From assembly GCA_963796105.1 (NCBI GenBank), contig CAWCKJ010000004.1, positions 864,001-928,000 of the forward strand: 64,000 nucleotides of DNA, read 5' to 3'. This document shows positions 31,047 through 46,866 of the stretch, piece after piece. The number at the start of each line of letters is the position of its first letter. Position 1 is the stretch's first letter. The notes beneath the pieces were generated by a model. That model was given only the letters and a program-made list of their open reading frames with translations. It had not been told where the DNA came from and ran no database searches. The position numbers and the translations under genes are program-made. The DNA comes from a candidate division FCPU426 bacterium. Its GTDB lineage: Bacteria > Oederibacteriota > Muellerivitia > Muellerivitales > Muellerivitaceae.

Positions 31047-31223
31047 TTTCTTGGGACAAGTTTTTAAAGGGTGACAGGCTTGCTTTTCCGTTCTCCTGGG
31101 CCCCATCATATTGTGAAAACAAACATTTGTAATCTTTGCCACAGATTCAGGGGTACACTCAGATTGGCTAAAGTAAAAAGGCTTTAAATTTTTATGTTTA
31201 TTAAATCCCATGAATCCCATGCA

Positions 31224-31298
31224 TGCCAGCCTTCCATAAATCTAATAAGGCGGCTGGTATCGTACCGATTTCATTAACTGCTTTATTGTGAATCGGCA
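31224..31298 (+). repeat. Two-hairpin MITE-like element, copy A
   Basis: CA|TGCCAGCC...GGCTGGTA-TC-GTACCGATT...AATCGGCA|CA. Confidence 0.9.
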
Positions 31299-31427
31299 CA
31301 TTCGTGGCTAAGTTTATTTTTGGACGGTGTAAAAATTTTTGGTTTTTCCTTACTGTACCTTTGTGGTTCCGAAGGAACCTGTGGTGGATATAGTTTTTAT
31401 TAGTGTCTGTAACGAAAGGATTTAAGG

Positions 31428-31913
31428 ATGAAGTATTCGGAACGAGTTGAGAAGATCAAGGAATACGGGAACGTCGCAAGGGATCTGCCGGAAATCCTCG
31501 TGAAATTCCCGCGAACTATGTGGAATTACAAACCCGATCCGGGGCGATGGTGTGTGCACGAAATCCTCTTTCACCTTCTTGATACCGAGGCCAACCTCTA
31601 TGTCCGTTACCGCGCCGCCCTGGCCGAGCCGGGAAAAACAATTATGCCTTTCGACCAGGACCGCTGGTCCAAGGAGCTGGATTACAAGGGCAAGGATGTG
31701 GAATTCGCCATTGACGGGTTAAGGTGGATGATCCGCGCCAATACGGACCTTCTTTTAGCCCAGCCTGAGAAGGCGTTTGAACGCGATATCACTCACCCGG
31801 AACGGGGTTCCTTGACATTGGACCGCATGTTGGAAACCTATCTGGGCCATATTCCCCACCATATCGGGCAGATGAATAAACGCCTGACCGAATGGAAAGC
31901 ATTGGGAAATTAA
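31428..31913 (+). CDS. DinB/YfiT-family protein
   Basis: W.VHEILFHLLD.E, FDQD.W and H..HH..Q motifs. Confidence 0.88.
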   Translation: MKYSERVEKIKEYGNVARDLPEILVKFPRTMWNYKPDPGRWCVHEILFHLLDTEANLYVRYRAALAEPGKTIMPFDQDRWSKELDYKGKDVEFAIDGLRWMIRANTDLLLAQPEKAFERDITHPERGSLTLDRMLETYLGHIPHHIGQMNKRLTEWKALGN

Positions 31914-31961
31914 AAACTGGCAAAACTTCATTTTCACCACAGCGGTGCTACGCATCACACA

Positions 31962-32039
31962 TGCCAGCCTTCCATAAGTCTGTTTATGAGGCTGGTATAG
32001 TACCGATTTCTAAATTTTATTTTATATGGATAATCGGCA
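31962..32039 (+). repeat. Two-hairpin MITE-like element, copy B
   Basis: Same termini, CA flanks and stems as copy A. Confidence 0.9.
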
Positions 32040-32159
32040 CAAAGACTCAGCTTTAACCTAACAAAATTAAAGAAATATTTTTACTATCTACGACCCTTCG
32101 CTGTGGTACGAAGGGTTCTGTGGTTCCGATGGAACCTGTGGTAAATTCTTTTTTCCCCG

Positions 32160-32546
32160 ATGTATCATACTTTCATGATCCGTAAAACCAGCCTCAGCGT
32201 CCTTGCTTTCACTTATCTCTTTTTGGGGATTTACCATTTTACCCGCTTTGATTATTTCCTGAGCTTGGTACCCCAATTTCTCCCTGCCCGCACAGCATTC
32301 ACTGCAATCTCTGGATCTTTGGATATTTTAGCGGCGGTATTGATTCCATTCCGAGCTACCCGGAAAGCGGCCTGCTACGTGCTTTTGGCTCTCTTGGTAT
32401 TTGTTTTCCCCTTCAATCTTTACATCATCTGTTCGGGCGGGGCTGGTATTCCACTTCCGAGGTGGGAACTGATAGCGCGCATTCCCTTCCAATTTCTATT
32501 GATGACTTGGATTTATTGGCATAGCCGGGATGAAAAAATAGATTAA
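32160..32546 (+). CDS. DoxX-like membrane protein
   Basis: G..HF...P, VFP.N and RIPFQ...W..W pattern. Confidence 0.8.
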   Translation: MYHTFMIRKTSLSVLAFTYLFLGIYHFTRFDYFLSLVPQFLPARTAFTAISGSLDILAAVLIPFRATRKAACYVLLALLVFVFPFNLYIICSGGAGIPLPRWELIARIPFQFLLMTWIYWHSRDEKID

Positions 32547-33736
32547 AAAACCTCTCCAGCATGGAGAGCCTTGAAGAATTGGTCTAAGGGAAGGATATCC
32601 AAACCTCGGCTGTGATAGGACCTTTCCCCCATGTAAACACCGATCATCCGGTCCAATTTCAAATTTCCCAGGGTGGAGAGGGAACGCATGGGTTTTTCCC
32701 ATCCCGGGTCCCATCGCTTGGAGGATTTGACCTCGATTGCCACCGCCCTTGGCGGAGTTCCCGGCCTCTTTGAGGATGTTTCCACGATGAAATCCACTTC
32801 CACGCCCGCCGGTGAATGGTAATAGTAGAAAGGCCTGTGCCGGTTACCGGTTTGGTTGAAGACCCTCATTTCATGGTAAACCAGGGTTTCGAGGGCGAAA
32901 CCCCGCCAACTCCCGTCCACAGGGTCCCGCAGCAGTCCCGCCGCCGCCCGTGCCACGCCGGGGTCGAACCAATAAAACTTGGGCCGGGTGGTTTCACGGA
33001 CTTTGAAGCCCGGGCGCCATGCCGGGAGATCGTGTGCCAGGAGGGTATCGCGCAGGATTCCAAAATAGGTATCCACCGTACTGCGGGAAACCGAGGCTTC
33101 CCGGGCGATATTCTGGGCGTTGAGTATTTGGCCGTTGATCCTCCCCGCTACCGTGAGAAACCGGACGAACGGCTGGACGTTCCTAAGAAGGCCCTCCGCC
33201 ATCAATTCCTCCCTCAAATAAGTCGTTACGTAAGCGGATAGGATTTCCACCGCCTGGTCCGGTTCGTTATGGATGAATGGCAAGGTTCCCTGGTCCAACG
33301 CCTTGTCCAGGCGGTAGGCGGACTTAAGTTCGGCCCAGGAAAAGCCTTCCATTGAATACGTCAAGGCCCGGCCGGCCAGCAAGTTGGCGCCGCCGCGCCT
33401 CAACTTTCTCGCGGAGGAACCGCACAAAGCGAAGCGCCAACCCCGGTCCTCCATCAGCCGGTGGACTTCATCCAAAAGGGAAGGAATCTTTTGGACCTCG
33501 TCCAATACGACCCAGGATTGGCGCGGGAGATTCCCCAGGAGCGATTCCAAGCGGTGGGGATCGGAGGAAAGTTCCAGGTAAAGGGAAGCGTCCAATAGGT
33601 CCAAGCGGGGAGCGCCTGCGAAGGCCTTCTTTAACCAGGTGCTTTTGCCTGTTCCCCGGGGGCCGAACAGGAAAAAGGAACGGGTTGGTTTTTCAAGCAG
33701 CCTATGGATGGAGGAAAAAACGGTCATAAACACCAA
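32543..33736 (-). CDS. AAA+ ATPase with DUF4143 and a C-terminal nuclease-like motif (COG1373)
   Basis: GPRGTGKST, LDEVQ, GSSARKL, LAGRA, KFYWFD.G and EVDF...AIEVK. Confidence 0.9.
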   Translation of the reverse strand: MVFMTVFSSIHRLLEKPTRSFFLFGPRGTGKSTWLKKAFAGAPRLDLLDASLYLELSSDPHRLESLLGNLPRQSWVVLDEVQKIPSLLDEVHRLMEDRGWRFALCGSSARKLRRGGANLLAGRALTYSMEGFSWAELKSAYRLDKALDQGTLPFIHNEPDQAVEILSAYVTTYLREELMAEGLLRNVQPFVRFLTVAGRINGQILNAQNIAREASVSRSTVDTYFGILRDTLLAHDLPAWRPGFKVRETTRPKFYWFDPGVARAAAGLLRDPVDGSWRGFALETLVYHEMRVFNQTGNRHRPFYYYHSPAGVEVDFIVETSSKRPGTPPRAVAIEVKSSKRWDPGWEKPMRSLSTLGNLKLDRMIGVYMGERSYHSRGLDILPLDQFFKALHAGEVF

Positions 33737-33829
33737 TCCGATGTTGTAAATTTACAATGCAATATTACAACAAGGTAGTCATATTTCATAGTCCCTTTTC
33801 ATACACATCATTCCCAGAATGATATAACC

Positions 33830-33972
33830 CATGTCTTATTTGCTTTATTGCCTTGTTGGGCGGGGCGGGGATTCCATTGCCGAGGTGGGAACTGATAACC
33901 CGCATACCCTTTCAACTTCTATTGATGACTTGGATTTACTGGCATAGTCGGGATGGGATGAATACAAAATAA
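33830..33972 (+). pseudogene. Diverged remnant of the DoxX gene 3' end
   Basis: Translates GGAGIPLPRWELITRIPFQLLLMTWIYWHSRDGMNTK*, near-identical to the end of 32160-32546. Confidence 0.85.
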
Positions 33973-34145
33973 TGATTGAGTTGTCCAACCAGGGTCCCCG
34001 TCGTGGACAACCTAATTCATTTCAAAATGGTTAATGGTGGCCAGATTCCTTAGTTCTTATTGAGTGAACAAGCTAACATATTTTTGAATTATTCTTCGAG
34101 GGAAAGGTCATTCTCAAGAAGGGTCTTCAGATTAGAACAGCTTTT

Positions 34146-35609
34146 TTATTGAGATGCGGGAAGATCTATTGTCCGAATTTGCCTGGGTATCACTTCAATA
34201 CGGTCTCGTATTTCAACCCCTTTTATCCAGTGAATCACACCGGTGATGCAAACCTTTTTATCAGACATATCCATGCTCAGTTGCTTTGGTTCAACATCCA
34301 TCCACTTTACAACCTTATTTTCCCCAATGGTAACAGGCTGGTCAAAATTGATCCTCCAGCCGGTAGTTTCACCGCCAATAGCCGCTAACCCACCTTTTAA
34401 AATCCCTTGAACGGTAATGGGATTTCCCTCAACCTCTAATCGGATTAAATCCAATTCTTTTTCATATTTACTATTAGGGGCTTCTGAAACTTCGTAGTAT
34501 TTTTTGGCTAGTTCAATGTTTTGAGGGACACCCAGTGCCTCTTCATAGGATCGAGCCAGATAATAGGCAGCATCTATGTGACCCTGATCGGCTTTTTTTT
34601 GTAACCAACCGACTATATCTGATATTTCCGTGGATGACATTTGATTTTTAAAATCTTGCAACATAAACCATAGACTGATTTCCGCTTCATTAAAACCACC
34701 ATCAGCCGACATTTCATAATATTTTTCCGCATTGACATAATCTCGGTTGAGGCCGAATCGAAAAGGAAAGTTACCACTTTTTAAATAATAATTACCTAAT
34801 TCAAAATCTGCTACAGGATTGCCCCTATCAGCAGATTTTTGAAGCCAAGACTTGGCCGCTTCCCGATCAGGATTAGGCAAATTAAGCTCGTGTTGGGCTT
34901 GCCTGAGCTCAAAGTCGCCTGGTTTATCGTTTGGTTTTTTCTCATTCCATGTCAATTCGTCGAGACATCTTTGGGAGTTGGAGTCACCTTCTGCAGCTGC
35001 TTTACGCCACCATTTTAAAGCCTCCTGGTCATCTTTTGGCACCCCTTCTCCCATATGGTAAAAAAGACCAATTTCAAAATAACAATCACCTTTTTTATAC
35101 CATTCGAAAGCTTTCGGATAATCACGCAATACGTTTTTGTAATGATCACCCAAGGCATTGGCCCCTTTTTTATTTCCCAAGTTCGCTGCCCTTTGAAACC
35201 ACTTCATGGCTTCAACAGGATTGTAGTGGTCAACGCCATGTCCCCACTCATAGCAATAACCTAAATTGACAAAGGCATCGGTGTTTCCAAGGTTTGCCCC
35301 TCTTTGATACCATTTGAAACTTTCTTTGTTATTTTGATAATACTTTGCGCTACCCTCCAATTTGGATTCCCCATGTCTTCCTCCGATTAACTCTCCAATA
35401 CGGTTGGCCGCAGCGCCGTTTCCTTTTTTAAATGCAATTCGATAAAACATTAATGCTTGGGTGTAATCACCTGTTTTTTCGGTTTCAACACCCTTTTCAA
35501 ATTCATCGGATTCCGTAGAAGTTTGCCCTCGAAGAAACAAAGAGGAGCCCACAAAAATTCCAAAACTTAAAATCACCAACAAAATCAAATTAGAAAATAT
35601 TTTTATCAT
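34146..35609 (-). CDS. Exported Sel1-repeat protein, AT-rich
   Basis: N-terminal hydrophobic segment; repeated LG..Y..G.GV....EA..W...AA..G. Confidence 0.88.
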   Translation of the reverse strand: MIKIFSNLILLVILSFGIFVGSSLFLRGQTSTESDEFEKGVETEKTGDYTQALMFYRIAFKKGNGAAANRIGELIGGRHGESKLEGSAKYYQNNKESFKWYQRGANLGNTDAFVNLGYCYEWGHGVDHYNPVEAMKWFQRAANLGNKKGANALGDHYKNVLRDYPKAFEWYKKGDCYFEIGLFYHMGEGVPKDDQEALKWWRKAAAEGDSNSQRCLDELTWNEKKPNDKPGDFELRQAQHELNLPNPDREAAKSWLQKSADRGNPVADFELGNYYLKSGNFPFRFGLNRDYVNAEKYYEMSADGGFNEAEISLWFMLQDFKNQMSSTEISDIVGWLQKKADQGHIDAAYYLARSYEEALGVPQNIELAKKYYEVSEAPNSKYEKELDLIRLEVEGNPITVQGILKGGLAAIGGETTGWRINFDQPVTIGENKVVKWMDVEPKQLSMDMSDKKVCITGVIHWIKGVEIRDRIEVIPRQIRTIDLPASQ

Positions 35610-35783
35610 AAATTTGCCTTTAAAGTTCTTTTGCCAATTACTGGCCTGGTTAGATTTGAACTGGCCCCAAAGGCTGTTATCAAAAGAAGTAAGTATATTT
35701 TTTTATCGTTTCACCAACCTTTCCAATAACACTTGTCCCCTACGACTCCCCGTGGTGAACAACTATTTTAAACCTCTCCTAAA

Positions 35784-36473
35784 TCATCTTTTACTTTGTC
35801 CAACTTGGTTTGCTTGTTTTTCGATCAGGTGGGATTCCCAAATGTGGACGCCGGAGAGTTGTTGGCGCGCGAGGTTGACCATGGCCTTGGCGATGGTCTG
35901 GGCCTGGATGGGGCGGTATTTCTTGAAAGGCCCGATAAACAGGGGGGAAAGGGGCTTTAACACCTTCTCCATGAATCTTTCGGAGGGCCGGCGCTCCTTG
36001 CGGTCCTTTTCGCCTAGTATGAAAGAAGGCCTCATGATATGGACGGCCTGGAAGGGAACCGCGCTGACCGCTTCTTCCATCTCGCCCTTGAGGCGGCTGT
36101 AAAACAACGATGAATTGGGATTGGCGCCCATGGAGGAAACCACCAGGAACTGACGGGAACCGTTTTTCAAGGAGATCTTGGCGAGGGAGAGGACGTATTC
36201 AAAATCCACCTTGCGGTAAGCCTGGAGGGAAGGTGTTTTCTGCCGGGTGGTGCCTAGACAGCAATAAACGGCGTTGGCTTTGGTGTTTTTAATGAACTTT
36301 TCCAGCAGGTCGAAGTCCACCACGATTTCACGGAGTTTCGGATGGGTTATTCCCTGCGGGGTGCGGACCAGCGAAATGACTTTGTCATATTGGGGATTTT
36401 CTAATATTTCCCGCAGGCAGTAGCCACCCACTAATCCGCTGGCTCCCGCGATCAAGGCCGTCTTTTGGGTCAT
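35784..36473 (-). CDS. NAD(P)-binding oxidoreductase (YraR/TIP30-like)
   Basis: GASGLVG, CCLGTT, VSSMGA, Y.RLKG..E and RPS motifs. Confidence 0.88.
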   Translation of the reverse strand: MTQKTALIAGASGLVGGYCLREILENPQYDKVISLVRTPQGITHPKLREIVVDFDLLEKFIKNTKANAVYCCLGTTRQKTPSLQAYRKVDFEYVLSLAKISLKNGSRQFLVVSSMGANPNSSLFYSRLKGEMEEAVSAVPFQAVHIMRPSFILGEKDRKERRPSERFMEKVLKPLSPLFIGPFKKYRPIQAQTIAKAMVNLARQQLSGVHIWESHLIEKQANQVGQSKR

Positions 36474-36580
36474 AGGCTAACCTCTTATCCCACAAGCATA
36501 AAGGATGGCGGGAATTTGGTGTAGGGTTTTTAGTACACCAATATTTTTAGTAAAAGCTTTTCAAACAATATTTTTTGGTT

Positions 36581-36633
36581 GTTATTGCGAGGAGTGGCCG
36601 CCGAATAAGCGGACTCATACGAGGAAGCAACCC
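36581..36633 (+). repeat. GTCATTGCGAG-type palindromic repeat, left arm
   Basis: GTTATTGCGAGGAG...GAATAAGCGG...GAAGCAACCC, paralogous to 29743-29795. Confidence 0.75.
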
Positions 36634-36687
36634 CAGTTTAAATAAGCCTTTAAATAGGCCCTAATCGAACGGCTAACTGTGGTCGCA

Positions 36688-36716
36688 TGCCAGCTTTCAA
36701 TAATGCTGAAAATTGT
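36688..36716 (+). repeat. Truncated left end of the two-hairpin element
   Basis: CA|TGCCAGCTTTC, then divergence; right half absent. Confidence 0.45.
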
Positions 36717-36812
36717 TTTCTAAAGCCGCAATTTTGTCCTCAATTTCTGTAGAATCAAAATTCGAACTACCCAACAGGTTGTGGATATCCTGATTTCAAA
36801 GGTTTTAAACCA

Positions 36813-37289
36813 ATGAAAATATTGCATGTTTTAAGCGGGGATTTCGTGACGGGCGCGGAAACATCAACCGTCGCTCTTATCGAAAGGCAAACCGAGGCCG
36901 GCCACCAGGTTTTCGTGGCGGCGGGCAAATTCGAGCATGAGGTGGAAGCTGCTTTTATTCCTGTTTCCATCTATGACCGGGGCTGGTTCAAAAGGTTACT
37001 CAATGTCCGGGCGCTGATCAAAGTCATCCGAAAGGAAAAAATCGATATCGTCCACGCCCATTCCCGCGCGGCCAGTTGGGTTTCCTACTGGGCCTGCCGC
37101 CTGACCCGCACTCCTTACCTTTCCACCCTGCATGGCCGCCAGCACCTGCATTTTTCAAACAAGAACTTCAACGTATATGGGAAAAAATGCGCGGTCATGT
37201 GCGAGAACATCCGTGAACAAATACTGAAAGAAACCAAAATCTTCAAACCGGAGCAATTGATTGTCATCCGCAACGGCATCCTCCAGTAA
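36813..37289 (+). CDS. GT4 glycosyltransferase, N-terminal domain only
   Basis: MKILHVL...GAE, DIVHAHSR, STLHG and VIRNG. Confidence 0.85.
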   Translation: MKILHVLSGDFVTGAETSTVALIERQTEAGHQVFVAAGKFEHEVEAAFIPVSIYDRGWFKRLLNVRALIKVIRKEKIDIVHAHSRAASWVSYWACRLTRTPYLSTLHGRQHLHFSNKNFNVYGKKCAVMCENIREQILKETKIFKPEQLIVIRNGILQ

Positions 37290-38595
37290 CCCCCTGGTTT
37301 TAATCGTCGGCAGGCTTTCGGGCCCCAAAAACGAGGTCATCCTGCGCTACCTGCGGGAGGCAGTAATTCCCGCGGCAACGGCCGATTCGACCTTGAGGGT
37401 GGCTGTGGTTGGAGGACCGGTGGGCGACGAACACCGGCAATTAGAGAAAGACCACCCATTCCTGAAGTTCGAGGGTTTCCAACCGGATCTCAAGCCCTTT
37501 TATGAAAAGGCCACCCTAGTCATCGGGGCGGGACGGGTGGCATTGGAAGCCATGGCCCATCAAAGGCCTGTGATCGCCGTTGGGGAACAAAAATACATCG
37601 GACCCCTCCTTCCCAATGCGGTGGAGGAAGCCAAGGCCACCAACTTCGGAGATTGCGAGGAAGGCACCCACTTCGATTGGGCCCGGGCAGCACAAGATCT
37701 TAAAAAGATGCTAGGGGACAAGGCCTTGCGTGAGGAGGCTGTCCGAACGGGAACCGCTTTGCTCCAGGCCGAGTACGACATGCGGAAGCTTTATCCCAAG
37801 GTCGAGGAACTTTACCGGGACGTTATTCTTCACGGAAATCTTTCCAGTCTATGTGAGATACCGGTCCTGATGTACCACCGGGTGGTCGAGAAGGAACCGG
37901 CTCTCGCCAAGTTTAATATCCATATCACCAATGATAACTTTGAGAAACACCTATTGTTCCTTCAAAAGAACGGGTTCACCCCCATCACTTTCGGGGACTT
38001 GTTGGAAAAGAAAATACCCTCCAAGCCAATCATCCTGACTTTCGATGATGGCTATGAGGATAATTATCTTCATCTTTACCCGCTTCTTCGCCGGTACGGC
38101 ATGAAGGCGGTGATTTATCTTTTAGGGGACAGGTCCATCCGGACGAATACATGGGATACCCCTAAGGGAGAACCGGAGACGCCCTTATTGAACGAAAAGC
38201 AGATCCTTGAAATGGCCAAAAGCGGAACAGTGGAATTCGGGGGCCATTCCATGACCCATTCAAGCCTGCCAGGACTTTCCAAGGAAAGCCTGGATCGGGA
38301 AGTAAGGGATTGCAAGAAATCCCTGGAGGGTCTGCTTGGGAAGCCGGTTGTGTCCTTTGCCTACCCTTATGGGGACTATAATGCAGAAACCCAAAAGGCC
38401 GTGGCCGAGGCCGGTTATCAATTCGGCGTGGCGGTGGAGGGGGGGCCTGCTTGTTTCGCTAAGGACCTCATGGCGATCCGGCGCATCCATATTTTTCCGG
38501 ATACCGGAGGCTTCGACTTTTACAAGAAAACCAGCGGGTGTTATTTAAGGTACAAGAAATTATTTGGGTTGCTTAAACCCTGGAAAAAACTATAA
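37261..38595 (+). CDS. GT-B C-terminal domain fused to a NodB polysaccharide deacetylase
   Basis: VGRLSGPK and GRVALEAMA; then PVLMYHR, LTFDDGY, GGHSMTH and FAYPYG. Confidence 0.87.
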   Translation: MSSATASSSNPLVLIVGRLSGPKNEVILRYLREAVIPAATADSTLRVAVVGGPVGDEHRQLEKDHPFLKFEGFQPDLKPFYEKATLVIGAGRVALEAMAHQRPVIAVGEQKYIGPLLPNAVEEAKATNFGDCEEGTHFDWARAAQDLKKMLGDKALREEAVRTGTALLQAEYDMRKLYPKVEELYRDVILHGNLSSLCEIPVLMYHRVVEKEPALAKFNIHITNDNFEKHLLFLQKNGFTPITFGDLLEKKIPSKPIILTFDDGYEDNYLHLYPLLRRYGMKAVIYLLGDRSIRTNTWDTPKGEPETPLLNEKQILEMAKSGTVEFGGHSMTHSSLPGLSKESLDREVRDCKKSLEGLLGKPVVSFAYPYGDYNAETQKAVAEAGYQFGVAVEGGPACFAKDLMAIRRIHIFPDTGGFDFYKKTSGCYLRYKKLFGLLKPWKKL

Positions 38596-38611
38596 GGAAC
38601 TTGGATCAGGC

Positions 38612-39418
38612 ATGAAAAAACCGTTGTTGAAACTCTCCATCGTTATCATCACCCGCAATGAGGAAACCCATATCGGTTCCTGCCTGAAGAGCCTGAAATT
38701 CTCCCGGGATTGCTTCAAAAGCTTGGAAACCATCGTGGTGGACGCCGAAAGTGGGGACCAAACTACAACTATTGCCAAGAAACTGGGGGCGAAAGTTTTT
38801 GTCCGCCCCTGGAAGGGATACTCAGACCAGAAAAACTGGGCCCTCGCCAAGTGCAAGGGGGATTGGATCCTTTCCCTGGACGCGGATGAGGAACTGACCC
38901 CGGAATTGATCAATGAAATCGAGAAAAAAATCCCTGAAACCCCGCAAGATGTGGCGGGTTATTTCATCAAGCGCAGGGCTTTTTTCCTGGGCAAGTGGAT
39001 CAAACATTGTGGATGGTGGCCTGACGCCCAGCTTCGCCTGATCAAAAGGGGTTCTGGCCGGTTCACGGATGAACTTGTGCATGAGGGCTTGGAAGTGGGA
39101 GGGAAAACCCTCGAATTCAACGAGCCCATGAACCATTTCACTTACGATTCCATCAGCCAATACCTGGACAAGATGAACCGCTATTCGAGCCTGGCGCTTT
39201 TGGAAATGAAGCAGAAAAAGAAAATTTTCTGGTGGTTCTACATGACGGCCGCCCCTTTCCTCACCTTTTTCCGGATGTATATCTCGAGAAGGGGTTTCCT
39301 GGATGGTTGGCACGGTTTGGCCGTCTGCGGGCTTTCGTCTTTCCACGATTTCGCCAAGTACGCCAAGCTTTGGGAAAAAGAGGTTTTAAAACGCGCTCCA
39401 GCTGGAAGAACCGTCTAA
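38612..39418 (+). CDS. GT2 glycosyltransferase (KdtX/WaaE-like, LPS core)
   Basis: ITRNEE, QKNWAL, WILSLDADE, VHE, RGFLDG and KYAKLWE. Confidence 0.88.
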   Translation: MKKPLLKLSIVIITRNEETHIGSCLKSLKFSRDCFKSLETIVVDAESGDQTTTIAKKLGAKVFVRPWKGYSDQKNWALAKCKGDWILSLDADEELTPELINEIEKKIPETPQDVAGYFIKRRAFFLGKWIKHCGWWPDAQLRLIKRGSGRFTDELVHEGLEVGGKTLEFNEPMNHFTYDSISQYLDKMNRYSSLALLEMKQKKKIFWWFYMTAAPFLTFFRMYISRRGFLDGWHGLAVCGLSSFHDFAKYAKLWEKEVLKRAPAGRTV

Positions 39419-39491
39419 TTCAAGCTGGGATTCACATCCGCTAAATAATTTCAGGGTATTAAAAATAAAAGGCATTAAAAAAACCATGTCT

Positions 39492-39689
39492 TAGCCACGG
39501 ATACATGGGATTTATGGGATTTAACAAGTCCAAATATTTAAAGCCTTTTCTCTTAACCCAATCTAAATGCATGCCCACTAAAACGGCAAAGCCGTTTTCT
39601 CATTAAAGCTTTCAATGAAAGTTCGGTATAGTGCCGATTTCATTAACTGCTTTAGGAGTGAATCGGCACATCCCCTAGATCCGTGGCTA
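39492..39689. repeat. REPIN-like host repeat, inverted paralogue of ~31135-31311
   Basis: 11-bp terminal IR TAGCCACGGAT/ATCCGTGGCTA; the interior aligns with the reverse complement of 31135-31311. Confidence 0.8.
39572..39668 (+). repeat. Two-hairpin element, copy C, with an extra nested micro-hairpin
   Basis: CA|TGCC...GGCA|CA; insert AAAACGGC-AAA-GCCGTTTT in arm 1. Confidence 0.85.
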
Positions 39690-39770
39690 GGTATTGTTTT
39701 AAGAATATCTTTTTTTATCAGACTATTGGTTTTTCTGGCATTAAAAATTAAGCTCTTCTCTGGGCCTCTG

Positions 39771-39850
39771 TGCCGATTATTCGTATATAAAATAAAATTT
39801 GGAAATCGGTACGATACCATCCTCATAAACAGTTTTATGGATGGCTGGCA
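39771..39850 (-). repeat. Two-hairpin element, copy D
   Basis: TG|TGCCGAT...GCTGGCA|TG; reverse complement closely matches copy B including its flank. Confidence 0.9.
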
Positions 39851-39908
39851 TGTGTGGTGCGAAGCACCGCTGTGGTAAATATTGTCTTAGCTTTTGGGGA
39901 GGATTCAA

Positions 39909-40220
39909 ATGGGGGAGTCAGCACAAATTGACGTGGCCCAAGCGAAGGAACTACAGGCCTCCGGCGCAGTTTTCGTGGATATCAGGGACCCCGCTTCCTA
40001 CGAGGCGGCACATATTCCGGGCGCCCTGCGTTTGAGCGATGCTAACATCCAAGATTTCATTCAAAAAACCGACAAATCCAAACCCGTAGTGGTTTATTGC
40101 TATCACGGCAATAACAGCCAGGGCGGCGCTGCCTATCTGATGGACCAGGATTTCCAGAAGGTTTACAGCCTCATCGGGGGTTTCGAACGCTGGCGCCAAA
40201 CAGAGAAAATAGAAAGCTGA
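39909..40220 (+). CDS. glpE: Thiosulfate sulfurtransferase GlpE (single-domain rhodanese)
   Basis: VDIRD..SY...HIPGA, CYHGNNSQ and SL.GGF..W. Confidence 0.9.
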   Translation: MGESAQIDVAQAKELQASGAVFVDIRDPASYEAAHIPGALRLSDANIQDFIQKTDKSKPVVVYCYHGNNSQGGAAYLMDQDFQKVYSLIGGFERWRQTEKIES

Positions 40221-40222
40221 TC

Positions 40223-40684
40223 ATGACCCGGAATTACTGGCTGATGAAGGCCGAACAGGACGTTTATCCCGTCGAGCAATGGAAGAAGGACAAGGTTAAC
40301 TTCTGGGATGGGGTCCGAAACTACACCGCCCGCAACTTCATGCGGGACCGGATGAAAAAGGGCGATGGGATGCTCTTCTACTATTCCGGCGGAAAACCCA
40401 GCGGTATCGCGGGGATGGGTGAGATCGTAAAAGAAGGCTACCCCGACCATACGGCTTTTGACCCCAAGGACATCCATTTCGACGAGAAGAGCGATCCCGA
40501 AAAACCCACCTGGTACATGGTGGATGTGAGGTTCGTGAAGGCCTGCGAGCAGGTGATCCCTCTGGATTTCCTCAAGAAAATACCCGAATTGAAAAACATG
40601 GTGCTTTTCAAGAATTCCCGCCTATCGGTCCAACCGGTGACCCAAACCGAGTGGGAGATTATTCGCAGGTTGATCGATAACTAG
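40223..40684 (+). CDS. EVE domain protein
   Basis: YWLMK.E, WDGVRNY.ARNFMR and RLSVQPV. Confidence 0.93.
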   Translation: MTRNYWLMKAEQDVYPVEQWKKDKVNFWDGVRNYTARNFMRDRMKKGDGMLFYYSGGKPSGIAGMGEIVKEGYPDHTAFDPKDIHFDEKSDPEKPTWYMVDVRFVKACEQVIPLDFLKKIPELKNMVLFKNSRLSVQPVTQTEWEIIRRLIDN

Positions 40685-40766
40685 CAATAAAACATCTCAT
40701 CAACTACGAACAAAAAACAAGAGAAGATTAAAATCCCCTTCATCGGCAGCCTTAAATGCTGCTTGC

Positions 40767-40952
40767 TCAACCATTGGATTCCTCATCCAATGGTTCCCAT
40801 ATTCGGGGATCGCTGTCACGAATCAATTCCTGGGCCAATTCCCCAGCCAGTTGAGCGTATGTTTCTGGGGAAATCCCTTGGGCTTCCAGTATCATGGTTT
40901 GGTTCACGGCCTTCATTAGGTTTTGGGCCAGCTTTTGGGCCCGCTTTTCCAC
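40767..40952 (-). CDS. Small hypothetical protein
   Basis: 61-aa helical-looking ORF convergent with EVE; no family recognised. Confidence 0.5.
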   Translation of the reverse strand: MEKRAQKLAQNLMKAVNQTMILEAQGISPETYAQLAGELAQELIRDSDPRIWEPLDEESNG

Positions 40953-41289
40953 TATCTCGGATAAGGATTTGTAACCCTGTTCCGGTTTTCGCCGGTAACC
41001 TGGGATCCCCTATGCTGAGCCCACAAGGCGAAGCATGAGACTTGGGTGTGTTGGCGCCAAGATAATGGGTGCCATGGTGACATTTCCGGAGGCATAGAAG
41101 TGGCACAATCCCCGAAAAGTGGCACAATCAACTGCCCGCATTTCCGTCGGCAACCCGGGATAACCTGGTGACAGGCTGAGATAACCTTGGTGTCATTTTG
41201 GAACGCGCCCTACAAGTTGGACAGTTGAAGCAAAAAATAGAGAATAGGGAAACGGCTCAAGGGGTAACCCCCCAAAGGAGCATTTCCAA

Positions 41290-41637
41290 ATGGGTAAAAT
41301 AAGACGGAAGTTCAGTATTGATTTCAAAGAACAAGTCGTCCACGAGGTAGAAACTGGCCTATCGCTCAATGAAGCTGCTCGTCAATACCAGCTCAATCCA
41401 AGCGTTATAACCCGTTGGCGCGATAAATATCGCCAAGGAACCTTGGTTGAAAAACCTTCCCTTCACGAAAAAATATTGGAAAAAGAGAATGAGAAACTCA
41501 AAGCCAAGATTGGGGAATTGATCATGGCGATAGACCTTTTAAAAAAATTCCAAAAATACGCGGAAAACCAGAGAAAGCTCGATACCTCCGTGATCACCTC
41601 AAGGAATTTGGCTCAATTTCAAGAGGATGCCAAATGA
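41290..41637 (+). CDS. IS3 transposase OrfA
   Basis: RRKFS.DFK HTH and leucine zipper ending LLKK over an A7 tract. Confidence 0.92.
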   Translation: MGKIRRKFSIDFKEQVVHEVETGLSLNEAARQYQLNPSVITRWRDKYRQGTLVEKPSLHEKILEKENEKLKAKIGELIMAIDLLKKFQKYAENQRKLDTSVITSRNLAQFQEDAK

Positions 41638-42470
41638 TGGGGCTTCCTCGAAGTACCTATTATTCTGCACTTAAAAGTGAACCGGAGATTCAGGAACAAA
41701 GAGATTTGGACTTAAAGAACCGAATCGAGCAGGTGAGATTGACCTTCCCCTACTACGGCTATCGGAGGCTCTACCACCACTTTTTACGGGAGGGATTAAG
41801 GATTAACGCCAAACGGATTCGGCGGGTGGTAAGGAAATACGGTCTTTACCCTATTATTTGGGGGAAAAGGTTCAAGATCCAAACCACCCAATCCAATCAC
41901 GACCTGCCGGTGTTCCCCAACCTCTTGGAAAGGGTGGCAGAAACTGCTGTCAATCAAGTGTGGGTGGCGGATATTACCTATATCCGAATCCTCACTTGCT
42001 TTGTTTATCTGGCGGCCATTCTGGATCGTTTTTCCAGAAAGGTGATCGGGTGGGCGGTTTCCAAGAGACTGGATCGGGAGTTGTCGCTTTCGGCTTTACG
42101 CATGGCTTTAGAGGAAAGGAATCCTCTTCCGGGATGCATCCACCATTCAGACAGAGGGGTGCAATATGCCTGCTGGGATTACGTGGCCCTGCTTGAGTCC
42201 AAAGGATTAAGGATCAGCATGTCCAGGACAGGCAACCCTTACGACAATGCAAATGCGGAATCCTTTTTCAAAACCTTGAAATATGAGGAGGTGCATCTAT
42301 TCAATTACGAAACTTATCAGGAAGTGCTTCAAAGACTTCCATACTTCATCGAGGAGGTGTATAACAAAAAACGGTTGCATTCTTCTATCGGCTACATGCC
42401 GCCTGAGGAGTTCGAGGCTTTAAAGTCACTCAAACCAATCGCCGGAAAACCTATTCTCAACTTGGAGTAA
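41634..42470 (+). CDS. IS3 transposase OrfB (DDE)
   Basis: YGYRR, WVADITY, HHSDRG.QY, DNA.AESFF and YN..RLHSS. Confidence 0.95.
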   Translation: MMGLPRSTYYSALKSEPEIQEQRDLDLKNRIEQVRLTFPYYGYRRLYHHFLREGLRINAKRIRRVVRKYGLYPIIWGKRFKIQTTQSNHDLPVFPNLLERVAETAVNQVWVADITYIRILTCFVYLAAILDRFSRKVIGWAVSKRLDRELSLSALRMALEERNPLPGCIHHSDRGVQYACWDYVALLESKGLRISMSRTGNPYDNANAESFFKTLKYEEVHLFNYETYQEVLQRLPYFIEEVYNKKRLHSSIGYMPPEEFEALKSLKPIAGKPILNLE

Positions 42471-42708
42471 AAACTGTCCAAGGTTTGGGGCGCACACCAT
42501 TTCCGTCGGCAACCCAGGATAACCTGGTGACAGGGTGGGATAACCAGGTGACAGCTACCGGCATTTCCGCAGGAAACCCAGGATAACCTGGTGACACCTA
42601 CTGGCAAAGGGCAGGTTCCGAGACTCCTGCCGCCAGATCGCTAGTACCGCTTCCAACGTGGCATTATCATGTCGAGGATTGATAACGAACTGACGGTAAC
42701 CGCCCCCT

Positions 42709-44541
42709 ATGAAACCTTCAAAAAACACCACCCCCCTTTCCCTTCTCAACCGCGTCTTTGGGTACCCGTCCTTTCGGGGTCGGCAGGAGGCCGTCATCCG
42801 CCATGTCCTGGACGGGGGTTCCTGCCTGGTGCTGATGCCCACCGGGGGCGGCAAAAGCCTCTGCTTCCAGATCCCGGCCATGTTGAGGCCCGGCCTGGGG
42901 CTGGTCATTTCCCCCCTCATTGCCCTGATGCAGGACCAGGTGGACGCCTTGGTCCAGAACGGGGTGGCGGCCGCCTTTTACAACTCCACCCTGGATGGCC
43001 GCCAAAAAAGCGAAATCCGCGAACGGGCCTTTCGGGGGGAATTGGACCTGCTTTACGCCGCTCCCGAGACCCTCAACACCCCCGGATTCCAGGATTTCAT
43101 CCAAGGCCTTCCCCTAAGCCTCATCGCCGTGGATGAGGCCCACTGTGTTTCCCAATGGGGGCATGACTTCCGGCCCGATTACCTCCAAATCGCCCGCCTG
43201 CGGGAGCATTTCGCCTCCGTGCCCCTGGTGGCCATGACGGCCACCGCGGACCCCCAAACGCAAAAAGAGATCCGCGAGCGGCTGGGATTGGCGCAAGATC
43301 CCGTTTTCTCCTCCAGCTTCGACCGGCCCAACATCCGCTACCAAATCACGGTCAAGGGCGCGGGCCGGGAGCAGCTGCTGGATTTCATCCGTTCCAACCA
43401 TCCGGGCCAAGCCGGAATCGTCTATGTCCTGAGCCGGACCAATACCGAGGAAACAGCCGCCTGGCTCTCGGAAAGGGGCGTCCCGGCCCTGCCCTACCAC
43501 GCCGGAATGGATGCGGATTCAAGGCGCCGCCACCAGGCCAGGTTTCTCCGGGAGGACGGGCTGGTCATGGTGGCGACCATCGCCTTCGGGATGGGCATCG
43601 ACAAGCCCAACGTCCGCTTCGTGGCCCACCTGGGAATCCCCAAGAGCGTGGAGTCCTATTACCAGGAAACCGGCCGCGCGGGGCGCGACGGGGAACCCGC
43701 CTCGGCATGGATGGCCTATTCCCTGGACGACGTGGTGAAGCTCCGCCGGATGATCCAAGGCGGGGAGGGAGAGGAAGCCTACAAGCTCCTGGCCGGGCAA
43801 AAGCTCAACGCCATGCTGGGCCTTTGCGAGACCGTGCTCTGCCGCCGCCAGTCCCTGCTGGCCTATTTCGGCGAGGAACATCCGGGGAATTGCGGCGGTT
43901 GCGACAACTGCCTTCAGCCCCCCAAGACCTGGGACGCCACCGTCGCCGCGCAAAAAGCCCTTTCCTGTATTTACCGCACGGGCCAACGCTTCGGCGCAGG
44001 CCACTTGATCGACCTTCTCATGGGGAAGGAGACGGAAAAGGCCGCCCAGTTCGGTCATACCCGGTTAAGTATTTTCGGTGTGGGCAAGGAATTGGAAAAA
44101 AGGAATTGGGACTCGGTATTCCGCCAATTAGTCGCGGGGGATTACGTCGAAGTGGATTTGGAAAATTACGGCACCTTTAAGCTGAACCCAAAATCTTGGT
44201 CCGTCTTGAGGGATGGGCAAAAGGTGTGGTTGAGGGAAGACCCGGCCTTCCGCAAGGCCAAACGGGGTACCCGGAAGGGCAAAGCCCCAACAAGACCGCC
44301 TGTGGCCTGGGACGGCCGGGAATCCTCCCTTTTCGAGGCCTTGCGTGCCCTGCGGGCGCGCCTAGCCAAGGAACAAAACCTTCCGCCCTACGTCGTTTTT
44401 CACGACAGCACCCTGCGCGAAATGGCCGCCCAGCGGCCCTCCAACCTGGATGAGTTCGCCCAAATCTCAGGCGTCGGCGAAACCAAGTTGAAGCGCTACG
44501 GCCCCGCTTTCCTGGAAGTCCTGCGATCAGGTAGTTCCTAG
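42709..44541 (+). CDS. recQ: ATP-dependent DNA helicase RecQ
   Basis: [35 protein letters not shown] cysteines and HRDC domain. Confidence 0.97.
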
Positions 44542-44642
44542 CCCCGCCCTGATTAAGCCTGGGGTGAGCGGGTAAAACGAGTCGAAAACGTCGTGGGATT
44601 AAAAAAGTTTGAATGTCCGAAATCAATGCTTATCGGGGACAG

Positions 44643-44882
44643 TTAACGAAGTTTATCCTTCGGCTCAGGCTCGGTTTTTCCTACCTTTCCCATGGCCTTC
44701 AGGAATTTCGCCCGGCTTCCACTTCTTGCGCGGCTTCCTAAATATTCATCAGCCATCAGGGCTGAAACTTTTTCCGCGAGGGCCAATGTGATCATTTGAT
44801 TGATGGAAACATGCTCCTTGTCAGCCATTTCACGAACGGAACGGTGAAGGGTATTCGGCAGCCTCAAACTTATGGCACTCAT
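44643..44882 (-). CDS. Ribbon-helix-helix antitoxin
   Basis: MSAISLRLP..LH......A..E.VSINQ; ATGA overlap with the toxin stop. Confidence 0.85.
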   Translation of the reverse strand: MSAISLRLPNTLHRSVREMADKEHVSINQMITLALAEKVSALMADEYLGSRARSGSRAKFLKAMGKVGKTEPEPKDKLR

Positions 44883-45307
44883 TTTAGTCCTCCCAAAAAC
44901 GTCAATATTTTCTGGGGCGTGTAAATTTTTAAACCCCAAGCCTCAATTCCTTTGAAATCCCGTTTGTTAAAAGTAACAATCCCGCTTGCTCCAGAAGCCA
45001 CGGCCAATTCCAGGACCATGTCATCTCCCGGGTCTTTTAAGCATGGCCTCCAAAGATAATGTACTTTACAGTGTCTCGCCTCGGAGCAGAGATAATCTAG
45101 GATATCGTCCTTTTCCCCAGCCGAAAGTTTAATACCGCTATTTGGATTTTTAATCGCCGCCTCGTACTCCAACAGCAGCGCCACCGACAATTGAATTTGA
45201 AACCGTTTATCGCCCAGCGCCAATAATAATCGGTGTGAAGCGCCCAAACGCGACCTTAAAGCTGAGACAAGAATGTTGGTATCCAACACAATTCGCAAAG
45301 GTTTCAT
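44879..45307 (-). CDS. PIN-domain (VapC-like) toxin
   Basis: VLDTNILVSAL, LEYE, DPGDDMVLELA and VTFN.RDF. Confidence 0.9.
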   Translation of the reverse strand: MKPLRIVLDTNILVSALRSRLGASHRLLLALGDKRFQIQLSVALLLEYEAAIKNPNSGIKLSAGEKDDILDYLCSEARHCKVHYLWRPCLKDPGDDMVLELAVASGASGIVTFNKRDFKGIEAWGLKIYTPQKILTFLGGLK

Positions 45308-45399
45308 AATGGTATTATATATGATACCAACATTGTATCAACCAAACTTCTACCCCATTTCGCTTTGAAAATATCGTCCACGATCCCTGCCCATCGCTG

Positions 45400-45473
45400 T
45401 GCCGATCAACCATAAAGATAAATTGAGATCGGTACAATACCAGCCACATTAAAAGTTTAATGGGGGGCTGGCA
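45400..45473 (-). repeat. Two-hairpin element, copy E
   Basis: TG|TGCC...GGCA|TG inside the loop of the palindrome GCCCATCGC...GCGATGGGC. Confidence 0.88.
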
Positions 45474-45559
45474 TGCGGTGCGATGGGCTGTCAGACAAGA
45501 TATTGGGGACCGAAATAACCTTTCCCGCTACTCCCCGGACCTTGTTAAAATATGCGCCT

Positions 45560-46549
45560 ATGACCAATCCAATCCGACGGTGTTTTATATTAATTCTCTT
45601 AGTTTCCGCTTTTTCTCCCCTTCGGGCTGATCCCACTTTTCTCCAATTGAAACAGGATATCCCCTTATCCGGGGGGATGTCCCGGTTCGACCAACAGGCC
45701 TTCGACCCCCAAAACGGGATGCTTTATATCGCCCATGAGGGCGAGGGCCAGATCATCCTTTTCAATACCAAGTTAAACACTGTATTTACGACCCTACCTG
45801 GCTTTCCTGGGGTGACGGGGCTCTTATTGGTCCCCGAACTCCACCGCCTCTACGCCAGCGTCTCCCAAAGGCACCAGGTGGCGGTGATCGACACCCAAAG
45901 TTTGAAAGTGCTGGCCAAGGTCACGGCGGGCAATCTTCCCGACGGCATTGCGTATGTCCCAGAACTCCACCAACTGTTTGTATCGGATGAGCTGGGAGGG
46001 GAGGTCACAGTCATCGACGTCTTGAAAAACAAGCGCGTTGAATCCATCAAACTGGGCGGCCAGGCGGGGAATACCCGTTATGACTCAAGCTCCCGCCTTA
46101 TCTACACCACGGTCCAAACCAAGAATGAGCTGGCCGCGATCGACCCTCAAACCCGTAAGATCATCGCGCGCTATCCCATTTACAACGGCAAGCGGCCCCA
46201 TGGGCTCTGGATCGACACCAATACCCATTTGGCTTTTATCGGATGCGAGAAGGACAGCAAGCTGGTGGTTTTCGACCTCCAGACCCGCCTGGAGACCGCC
46301 GTCTCAAACGTCGGGAAAGAGCCGGACGTCCTGACTTTTGATAACCAGCAGGGGTACCTTTATGTGGCCTCGGAGGAGGGAAAAGCGTCGGTTTTCCGCG
46401 TCAGGGACCGGAAGATCGAGAAGATCGGCGATTTCGAGGTGGGGAACAAGGCCCATACCATCGAGGTGAACCCCCAGAACCATGATCTTTATTTTCCTTT
46501 GACGGTGGAAAAGAAGCCGGTCCTAAGGATCATGAAGCCTAATTTATAA
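45560..46549 (+). CDS. Exported YncE/YVTN beta-propeller protein
   Basis: Signal peptide from ATG 45560; repeated V.VID...G..P.G.A blades. Confidence 0.85.
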   Translation: MTNPIRRCFILILLVSAFSPLRADPTFLQLKQDIPLSGGMSRFDQQAFDPQNGMLYIAHEGEGQIILFNTKLNTVFTTLPGFPGVTGLLLVPELHRLYASVSQRHQVAVIDTQSLKVLAKVTAGNLPDGIAYVPELHQLFVSDELGGEVTVIDVLKNKRVESIKLGGQAGNTRYDSSSRLIYTTVQTKNELAAIDPQTRKIIARYPIYNGKRPHGLWIDTNTHLAFIGCEKDSKLVVFDLQTRLETAVSNVGKEPDVLTFDNQQGYLYVASEEGKASVFRVRDRKIEKIGDFEVGNKAHTIEVNPQNHDLYFPLTVEKKPVLRIMKPNL

Positions 46550-46568
46550 TCGATTCAAATCCACCACA

Positions 46569-46643
46569 TGCCAGCCTTCCACAAAGCTTTTAAAGAGGCT
46601 GGTATCGTACCGATCTCAATAATATCTTTATGGAAGATCGGCA
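46569..46643 (+). repeat. Two-hairpin element, copy F
   Basis: CA|TGCCAGCCT...AGGCTGGTA-TC-GTACCGATCT...AGATCGGCA|CA. Confidence 0.9.
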
Positions 46644-46790
46644 CAGGGTCTCAGAGACACAGCTAAAAAAACAAATAATTCCTTTTTCTTTTTTAAATGA
46701 ACCTCAGTTGCACATCTAAAAAATCAATCAACAAAGGGGAGATTAGCATGCGCATAGAAGTAATTTTAGAAAGATGTCTCTGAGGCTCTG

Positions 46791-46866
46791 TGCCGATCCT
46801 CTTTAAAGACATCAAATAGAGATCGGTACAATACCGCATTCATATAAGGTTTATAGAAAAGCGGCA
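46791..46866 (-). repeat. Two-hairpin element, copy G, variant stem 1
   Basis: Reverse complement reads TGCCGC...GCGGTA-TT-GTACCGATC...GATCGGCA; TG flanks on the plus strand. Confidence 0.88.

Follow-up and report, generated by a model that had tools for sequence, protein, structure and literature searches.

We describe a gene-less mobile DNA element of about 75 bases that likely chooses its landing site by base pairing of its own central triplet. Seven full copies lie in a 64,000-nt stretch (hereafter the window) of the genome of a candidate division FCPU426 bacterium (assembly GCA_963796105.1, contig CAWCKJ010000004.1, positions 864,001 to 928,000). Across the genome, copies carry a 2-base core on both sides, usually CA, and when the core differs between copies the outer bases of the triplet differ with it. 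This covariation of a central guide in natural copies is new here and is the main mechanistic clue, overlooked in the original prediction, which was made from the letters of the window. We propose that the element is self-guided as a folded single-stranded circle, most likely with an HUH-type single-strand transposase acting on it in trans. Best supported, and very probable, is the step in which it guides itself as a folded single strand; taken whole, with this catalyst, the proposal is plausible rather than probable.

Copies follow one layout: CA, TGCC-stem-loop-stem-GGTA, three bases, TACC-stem-loop-stem-GGCA, CA. The two hairpins are inverted relative to each other, not directly oriented. 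Their loops are about 20 nt long and AT-rich, with CCATAA/TTATG-like words, and the TG...CA termini belong to an imperfect 17-nt terminal inverted repeat (TIR). In the genome carrying the window (G000, 96.8% complete; C2 to C5 are its contigs and L numbers denote loci elsewhere), a structural scan gave 256 strand matches (136 loci), compared with 3 once the genome was shuffled; by profile search 202 loci were found, 172 of them near full length, versus none in the reversed genome. The family numbers about 200 copies in G000, and chance is excluded. Stem positions covary (19 double-change cells against 4.3 when shuffled, with 0 of 500 shuffles as high), a signal that kinship among copies can inflate. 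Next to the core, a non-pair (G.T or A.C) is kept at position 2 in 108 of 113 copies for stem 1 and 100 of 113 for stem 2, and by the loop consensus each half carries a bulged T, on alternate strands. From these conserved mismatches we infer recognition of folded single strands. No copy matches an Rfam family at its gathering score, as the original prediction would have it for a novel family; two weak matches to miRNA models fall far under threshold. Several copies of a multi-hairpin composite and of single-hairpin variants were also seen (C2:103367-103509, C4:769514-769652, C4:588797-588930), which suggests recombination between copies.

Mobility is supported by empty sites. We removed the element plus one core in silico and sought a look-alike in the same genome that touches no element. 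An empty paralogue was found for 67 of 94 loci, and 66 of these carry the same single core. At 90% identity or above, there were 47 single-core empty paralogues versus none for two-core or no-core forms, and one filled/empty pair is identical across 62/62 bases. The element also forms 11 head-to-tail tandem arrays of 2–8 copies each, with a single CA at 30 junctions. A single core in both empty sites and junctions is the signature of 2-base-core exchange via a joined-end intermediate. G000 holds many identical, recent copies. Between genomes, one candidate orthologous empty site was found (L160 versus G000 C3, 79% over 297 nt), unconfirmed at base level, and intergenic sequence in the same-genus genome is too divergent for filled/empty comparison. 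The original prediction is supported in so far as it describes a mobile, non-autonomous family whose insertions fall within other palindromes at a 2-base core.

The guide rule was counted on 137 distinct copies, parsed from 170 of the 202 G000 loci; 117 have equal flanks, and some of the unequal-flank rows are mis-parses. In 114 of the 117, reverse-complementing the outer bases of the triplet gives the core: CA with T.G (100 copies), CG with C.G (11) and TA with T.A (3). The middle base is free (C in 45, A in 44, T in 22 and G in 6). Fisher tests of the core–triplet association give p values of 1e-15 and 4e-5, which overstate it because copies are related. On a rough tree of the 102 guide-matching copies only, there are about six core changes, and for CG and TA alike its well-supported branches require two or more origins. 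In another genus, a TA class again has T.A (5 copies, retrieved with a pattern that left the triplet open), and within a tRNA-linked subfamily one tRNA-Arg carries the CA/T.G form and another the CG/C.G form. Across other genomes, 140 of 143 equal-flank copies obey the rule, most of them retrieved with patterns fixing T.G. No TG-flanked copy with a T.G triplet occurs among the 137, so the orientation of the core is fixed. Since the core is the reverse complement of the triplet ends, the centre of the element (arm-triplet-arm) is complementary to the junction of its joined ends. Covariation with a free middle base therefore implies that the element likely carries its own guide and folds.

Targets fall into 58 classes. 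The largest group comprises the terminal inverted repeats of GxxExxY nuclease cassettes and gene-less forms of these; at one GxxExxY gene in G000 both terminal arms are interrupted by the element. The element also inserts into repeats of what we take to be the GIY-YIG type (from the reading frame at the site), into further hairpins, into itself and at tRNA 3' ends, whose CACCA terminus its first arm restores. Compared with control intergenic CA sites, targets fold more stably (median -10.6 versus -6.8 kcal/mol, p=0.012), and 16 of 22 lie in repeated sequence versus 28 of 150 controls. The core may sit in a stem, in a loop or at a stem foot; confinement to stems was considered and rejected on this ground. 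Beyond the core there is a weak symmetric preference for a pyrimidine (Y) at -2 (39 of 58 classes) and a purine (R) at +2 (46 of 58), which resembles the element's own junction.

Two side observations concern these targets. GxxExxY genes, present in 27 of 31 family genomes, form single-gene cassettes between long inverted repeats (L283-L302; G000 C4:588800-589620 and C4:1488850). A second mini-element family, of about 130–150 bp, follows several G000 tRNA and tmRNA genes (C3:47052, C3:83565, C3:198469, C4:1010120); its terminus duplicates the T-arm and acceptor end, and it looks like a gene-less tRNA-targeting island.

In the proposed mechanism, one strand would be cut at both cores and its ends joined into a 77-nt circle. 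The circle would fold to a dumbbell in which the outer triplet bases (x and y) pair with the core and the middle base (N) bulges out. Single-strand transfer would join it to a target core exposed near another hairpin, and replication would fix the insertion; the near two-fold symmetry would allow either strand to serve. By analogy, an HUH-type catalyst is favoured because the Marinomonas TnpA-REP (group 3) picks CA through the same x.N.y geometry: CA is selected through T2 and G4 of a tag lying 2 nt from the stem (cited passages of PMC8266576).

Several observations weigh against this proposal. Of the partners originally suggested, HUH/RAYT suits the geometry best, yet a RAYT gene flanked by REPs was found neither in G000 nor at the inspected family loci. 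Y1 matches in G000 (subclasses taken from PMC6006769) are two IS200-type genes plus TIR-flanked (TIRYT) genes or fragments, with ends unrelated to the element. Nine of 31 family genomes, including the carriers G023, G021 and G076, have no Y1 match, although incomplete metagenome-assembled genomes can lose repeats. None of the 12 open reading frames (ORFs) flanked on both sides by the element is a Y1 gene. Copies that break the guide rule exist (3/117 in G000, 3/143 elsewhere), and the circle is deduced, none having been observed. The symmetric target preference suits a two-fold symmetric enzyme over a one-sided guide. Finally, insertions show no replichore bias in orientation (38/66, p=0.27), in contrast to IS608, which has a replichore/strand bias.

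The search for the enzyme extended to other classes. Gene-enclosing long versions, with the same ends around an ORF as the original prediction envisaged, were absent among 56 half-element matches searched over 6 kb for the partner arm, among end-motif matches and among 102 metagenome matches. Screens for Y1, Y2, IS110, resolvase, phage-integrase, reverse transcriptase (RT) and Cas1 genes returned no gene with matching ends or distribution, in keeping with the earlier remark that no cognate enzyme is evident. Y2 and RT had no match in G000, large serine recombinases number only two there, and Cas1 occurs in 9 of 31 family genomes. G000 has 36 phage-integrase matches, of which 15 were inspected by eye; the two Xer orthologues scored on the integron-integrase model fall below its cut-off. 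Comparison of insertion sequence (IS) ends found no match in 11 delimited IS families, and two others could not be compared over their full length; as originally noted, the element's ends are unlike those of IS3. An apparent IS110 link in G075 proved to be group II intron coding sequence.

A tyrosine recombinase acting as on attC and an enzyme of an unscreened class are real rivals as catalysts, whereas IS110 and DDE partners are unlikely. The same dumbbell might be handled by a tyrosine recombinase, as on attC or CTX attP, with one strand exchanged and the bulged base blocking the second exchange; the candidate would be the family's Xer-like protein. The dumbbell would give a pseudo-duplex of about 30 bp with an extra-helical base opposite the core, the Y-N-core-N-R target preference is symmetric, CCATAA/TTATG-like words occur in the loops, and in DIRS elements an internal complementary region pairs with both ends (cited passages of PMC7192593). 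A single Xer-like clade, the only family-wide recombinase found, is present in 29 of the 30 other family genomes plus one same-order genome; elsewhere matches are at about 30% identity. Yet the clade is also present in the element-free genomes G008, G012, G017 and G025, and the protein scores 75 bits on the integron-integrase model against a cut-off of 265. The palindrome TATAA-N6-TTATA upstream of the xer gene is unlike the arms adjoining the core, and cutting at the edge of a core-centred 6-base spacer would shift two core-flanking bases, which is not seen. A single-sequence fold of the Xer protein reached a pLDDT of 38. We regard this catalyst as unlikely. Self-guidance by an enzyme outside the screened classes, whether a host enzyme or a nuclease or recombinase that is peculiar to the family and unannotated, is doubtful too. 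With many identical recent copies in G000 the enzyme should be encoded there, and screens of this 96.8% complete genome gave no gene with matching ends or distribution; but this argues from absence alone, about eight families were screened rather than the whole proteome, and TIRYT or IS200 enzymes may act in trans on non-cognate hairpins.

Other rivals change what the triplet does or who reads the core. The triplet may be no guide at all, the covariation arising after insertion through templated repair or selection for a longer hairpin, with an ordinary enzyme moving the element. Core and triplet can indeed pair on either side in the integrated state, a few mismatched copies exist, and certain non-CA classes are each confined to one target repeat, so that lineage and target are partly confounded. 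Three separate positions must nevertheless switch together about six times while the middle base drifts freely, and the adjoining position-2 mismatch is never repaired, which makes this account quite improbable. The original prediction ranked IS110-family and DDE partners as equally possible with HUH/RAYT, and neither ranking held. An IS110/IS1111 recombinase with a bridge RNA, as for MITEPpu9, would explain a single 2-base core in the junction, palindromic targets and tandem copies, all described for ISPpu9/ssr9 (cited passages of PMC12288879). IS110 genes, however, occur in 7 of 31 family genomes and are missing from carriers such as G016; their ends (multi-copy groups and the G000 copy) are unrelated to the element; the 58 target classes share little past the core; and by eye the loops match neither target nor donor. 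We hold it very improbable. A classical MITE (miniature inverted-repeat transposable element) that a DDE transposase moves, duplicating 2 bp of the target, has in its favour the TG...CA termini, the imperfect 17-nt TIR and the presence of IS3, IS21 and IS30 elements. The non-palindromic core of fixed orientation largely refutes it, no ends match in the delimited IS families, and the covariation is left unexplained; of such a mechanism there is scarcely a chance. At the other extreme, the element may stand for a class of mobile DNA that is new, minimal and self-guided: as a single-stranded dumbbell of 77 nt, it would program both circularisation and target dinucleotide through one bulged triplet, be served by a recombinase class not yet tied to transposition, and live as a parasite of hairpin-ended cassettes and tRNA 3' ends. 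That stronger claim is possible but rather doubtful.

Some observations on the screened genes stand on their own. A single conserved Xer-like recombinase is shared across the family, and most genomes lack a close XerC/XerD pair (G000 C3:368879-369960, minus strand; L081, L087, L089, L093, L094, L096). The TATAA-N6-TTATA palindrome spans the xer promoter, and its arms differ between genomes yet stay complementary. Reading the element's loops as dif-like Xer sites was rejected because the spacing of the loop words is mostly 4-5, not 6. The family's IS110 elements sit in the terminal repeats of TIRYTs or in RT genes of group II introns (L249-L277). Inverted flanks that differ from copy to copy surround some TIRYT elements, as though these had landed at palindrome centres (L056, L058, L063). 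In a duplicated island (G000 C5:44443-45815), a small ORF of Cas2 size comes after a Cas1-like gene.

A covariance model, with 47 candidates scored per genome, placed the element in 27 of the host family's 30 other genomes; of 68 phylum genomes outside the family, none had it. The three element-free family genomes are 85–97% complete. A broader genome scan returned at least 23 loci, including one in a record titled Candidatus Firestonebacteria (L017), while plasmids, phages and IMG/VR yielded no full-length copy. In several genera a copy lies upstream of the same ftsE-like gene (L017, L109, L118, L123); two have drifted from the guide rule, and these copies look like an old insertion kept vertically.

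The window copies (Table 1) were predicted correctly as to position, strand, TGCC...GGCA ends and two adjacent stems, as was the partial copy at 36688, a truncated remnant; the right arm of its host repeat was not found in the window. A direct CA on both sides holds for all seven full copies but not as a family rule, given the CG and TA classes. Copy G does alter both sides of stem 1 together. The flank sharing of copies B and D was found on the left, within a 98-nt match at 90%. In copy C the left arm is unpaired with the right arm at stem positions 5-8, which marks it as a chimera. The host hairpin of copy E is present in empty form elsewhere on the same contig.

Table 1. Element copies and associated features in the 64,000-nt window
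Feature	Position	Strand	Remarks
Full copy A	31224..31298	+	Hairpin 1, triplet TCG, hairpin 2; CA core at 31222-31223 and 31299-31300
Central triplet (T-N-G) of copy A	31260..31262	+	Outer bases complementary to the CA core; middle base free
Host inverted repeat, GxxExxY-cassette type	31138..31308	.	Right arm interrupted by copy A; 24 empty paralogues
Full copy B	31962..32039	+	Triplet TAG; left flank and loop 2 type in common with copy D
Left-end remnant, truncated	36688..36712	+	Within GIY-YIG-cassette-type repeat
Copy C	39572..39668	+	Chimeric hairpin 1 plus an extra small hairpin; triplet TAG; hairpin 2 intact
Full copy D	39771..39850	-	Triplet TCG
Full copy E	45400..45473	-	Triplet TTG; lies within the loop of a host hairpin of 9 bp
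Full copy F	46569..46643	+	Triplet TCG
Full copy G	46791..46866	-	Triplet TTG; compensatory change in stem 1

Elsewhere in the window, an IS3 copy (41139-42609) lies within a 48-nt repeat that occurs three times, a glycosyltransferase/polysaccharide deacetylase gene (36813-38595) reads as two overlapping frames with a possible frameshift, and a cobalamin riboswitch (2433-2595) precedes a TonB-dependent receptor.

The element appears to be an undescribed variant of small hairpin mobile DNA, real and active, with a clear targeting rule. No description of it or of a naturally covarying central guide was found in the literature, supplements and REP family figures lying outside the search. How REP-like repeats spread is an open question, and guide-based site choice by TnpA-REP has been shown in vitro; the natural copies here record coupled changes of guide and landing site. 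A 75-base substrate also gives a sharp prediction, that an altered triplet alters the target, and the hunt for the enzyme is bounded by 27 carrier genomes versus 4 close non-carriers. Were the enzyme of a new class, it could offer a DNA-guided single-strand insertion tool with a tiny donor. The element is, further, an example of a parasite sustained by terminal repeats, those of GxxExxY and GIY-YIG cassettes.

The element is not a member of the REP/RAYT, IS110, IS200/IS605, attC or DDE MITE families. Like attC, as generally understood, it is predicted to present a folded single-strand substrate with an extra-helical base. Integron attC sites carry RYYYAAC/GTTRRRY boxes; the element has neither these nor a consistent cassette orientation, and here the site itself is mobile. 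IS200/IS605 derivatives have two directly oriented end hairpins, a 4-5 nt target and no duplication, whereas the element's hairpins are inverted, its 2-nt core stands on both sides and the resident IS200 ends are unrelated. Unlike DDE MITEs, it has no TIRs in common with a resident IS and no orientation-free target duplication.

Cyanobacterial SDR5 is similarly a very small repeat module. It too is inserted precisely at a short site, but the target of SDR5 is the HIP1 octamer (PMC4390886); this comparison is by description only. IS110, MITEPpu9 and ssr9 have in common with the element a 2-base core, a circular intermediate (predicted in our case), palindromic targets and tandem non-autonomous copies, and core-based non-autonomous circles are already known (PMC12288879; 10.64898/2026.03.19.712850). 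There the bridge RNA sets one fixed target, whereas the element has many targets, a putative DNA-borne guide and no matching recombinase. In DIRS-1, likewise, an internal stretch is complementary to the two ends and to the junction of the circle, each flank bears a short core, and self-insertion occurs (PMC7192593). It is, however, a 4.8-kb eukaryotic retroelement with RT and tyrosine recombinase, while the element is gene-less and 75 bases long.

REP dimers and TnpA-REP come close in other respects. Both families consist of small imperfect inverted hairpin pairs in hundreds of intergenic, lineage-restricted copies (PMC8266576, PMC3733652, PMC3479197), and REP dimers inside other palindromes are already known (PMC3733652). 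Both IS200/IS605 and TnpA-REP rely on mismatched hairpins together with a 5' guide (PMC3479197); the element likewise has imperfect hairpins with a conserved mismatch or bulge, and its dinucleotide, judged by covariation, would be chosen as TnpA-REP does by tag bases 5' of the stem. It lacks the conserved GTAG (or CGTC) tag of the hairpin foot, the equivalent tetramer being ATNG or ACNA with a free third base, and no REP-flanked RAYT gene was found. Unlike REP dimers, it has one triplet serving both hairpins on opposite strands, a core on both sides that covaries with this triplet, and AT-rich loops of about 20 nt. By analogy, the element would work as a tail-to-tail REP dimer whose hairpins share one guide, and as a small-scale counterpart of the internal complementary region in DIRS.

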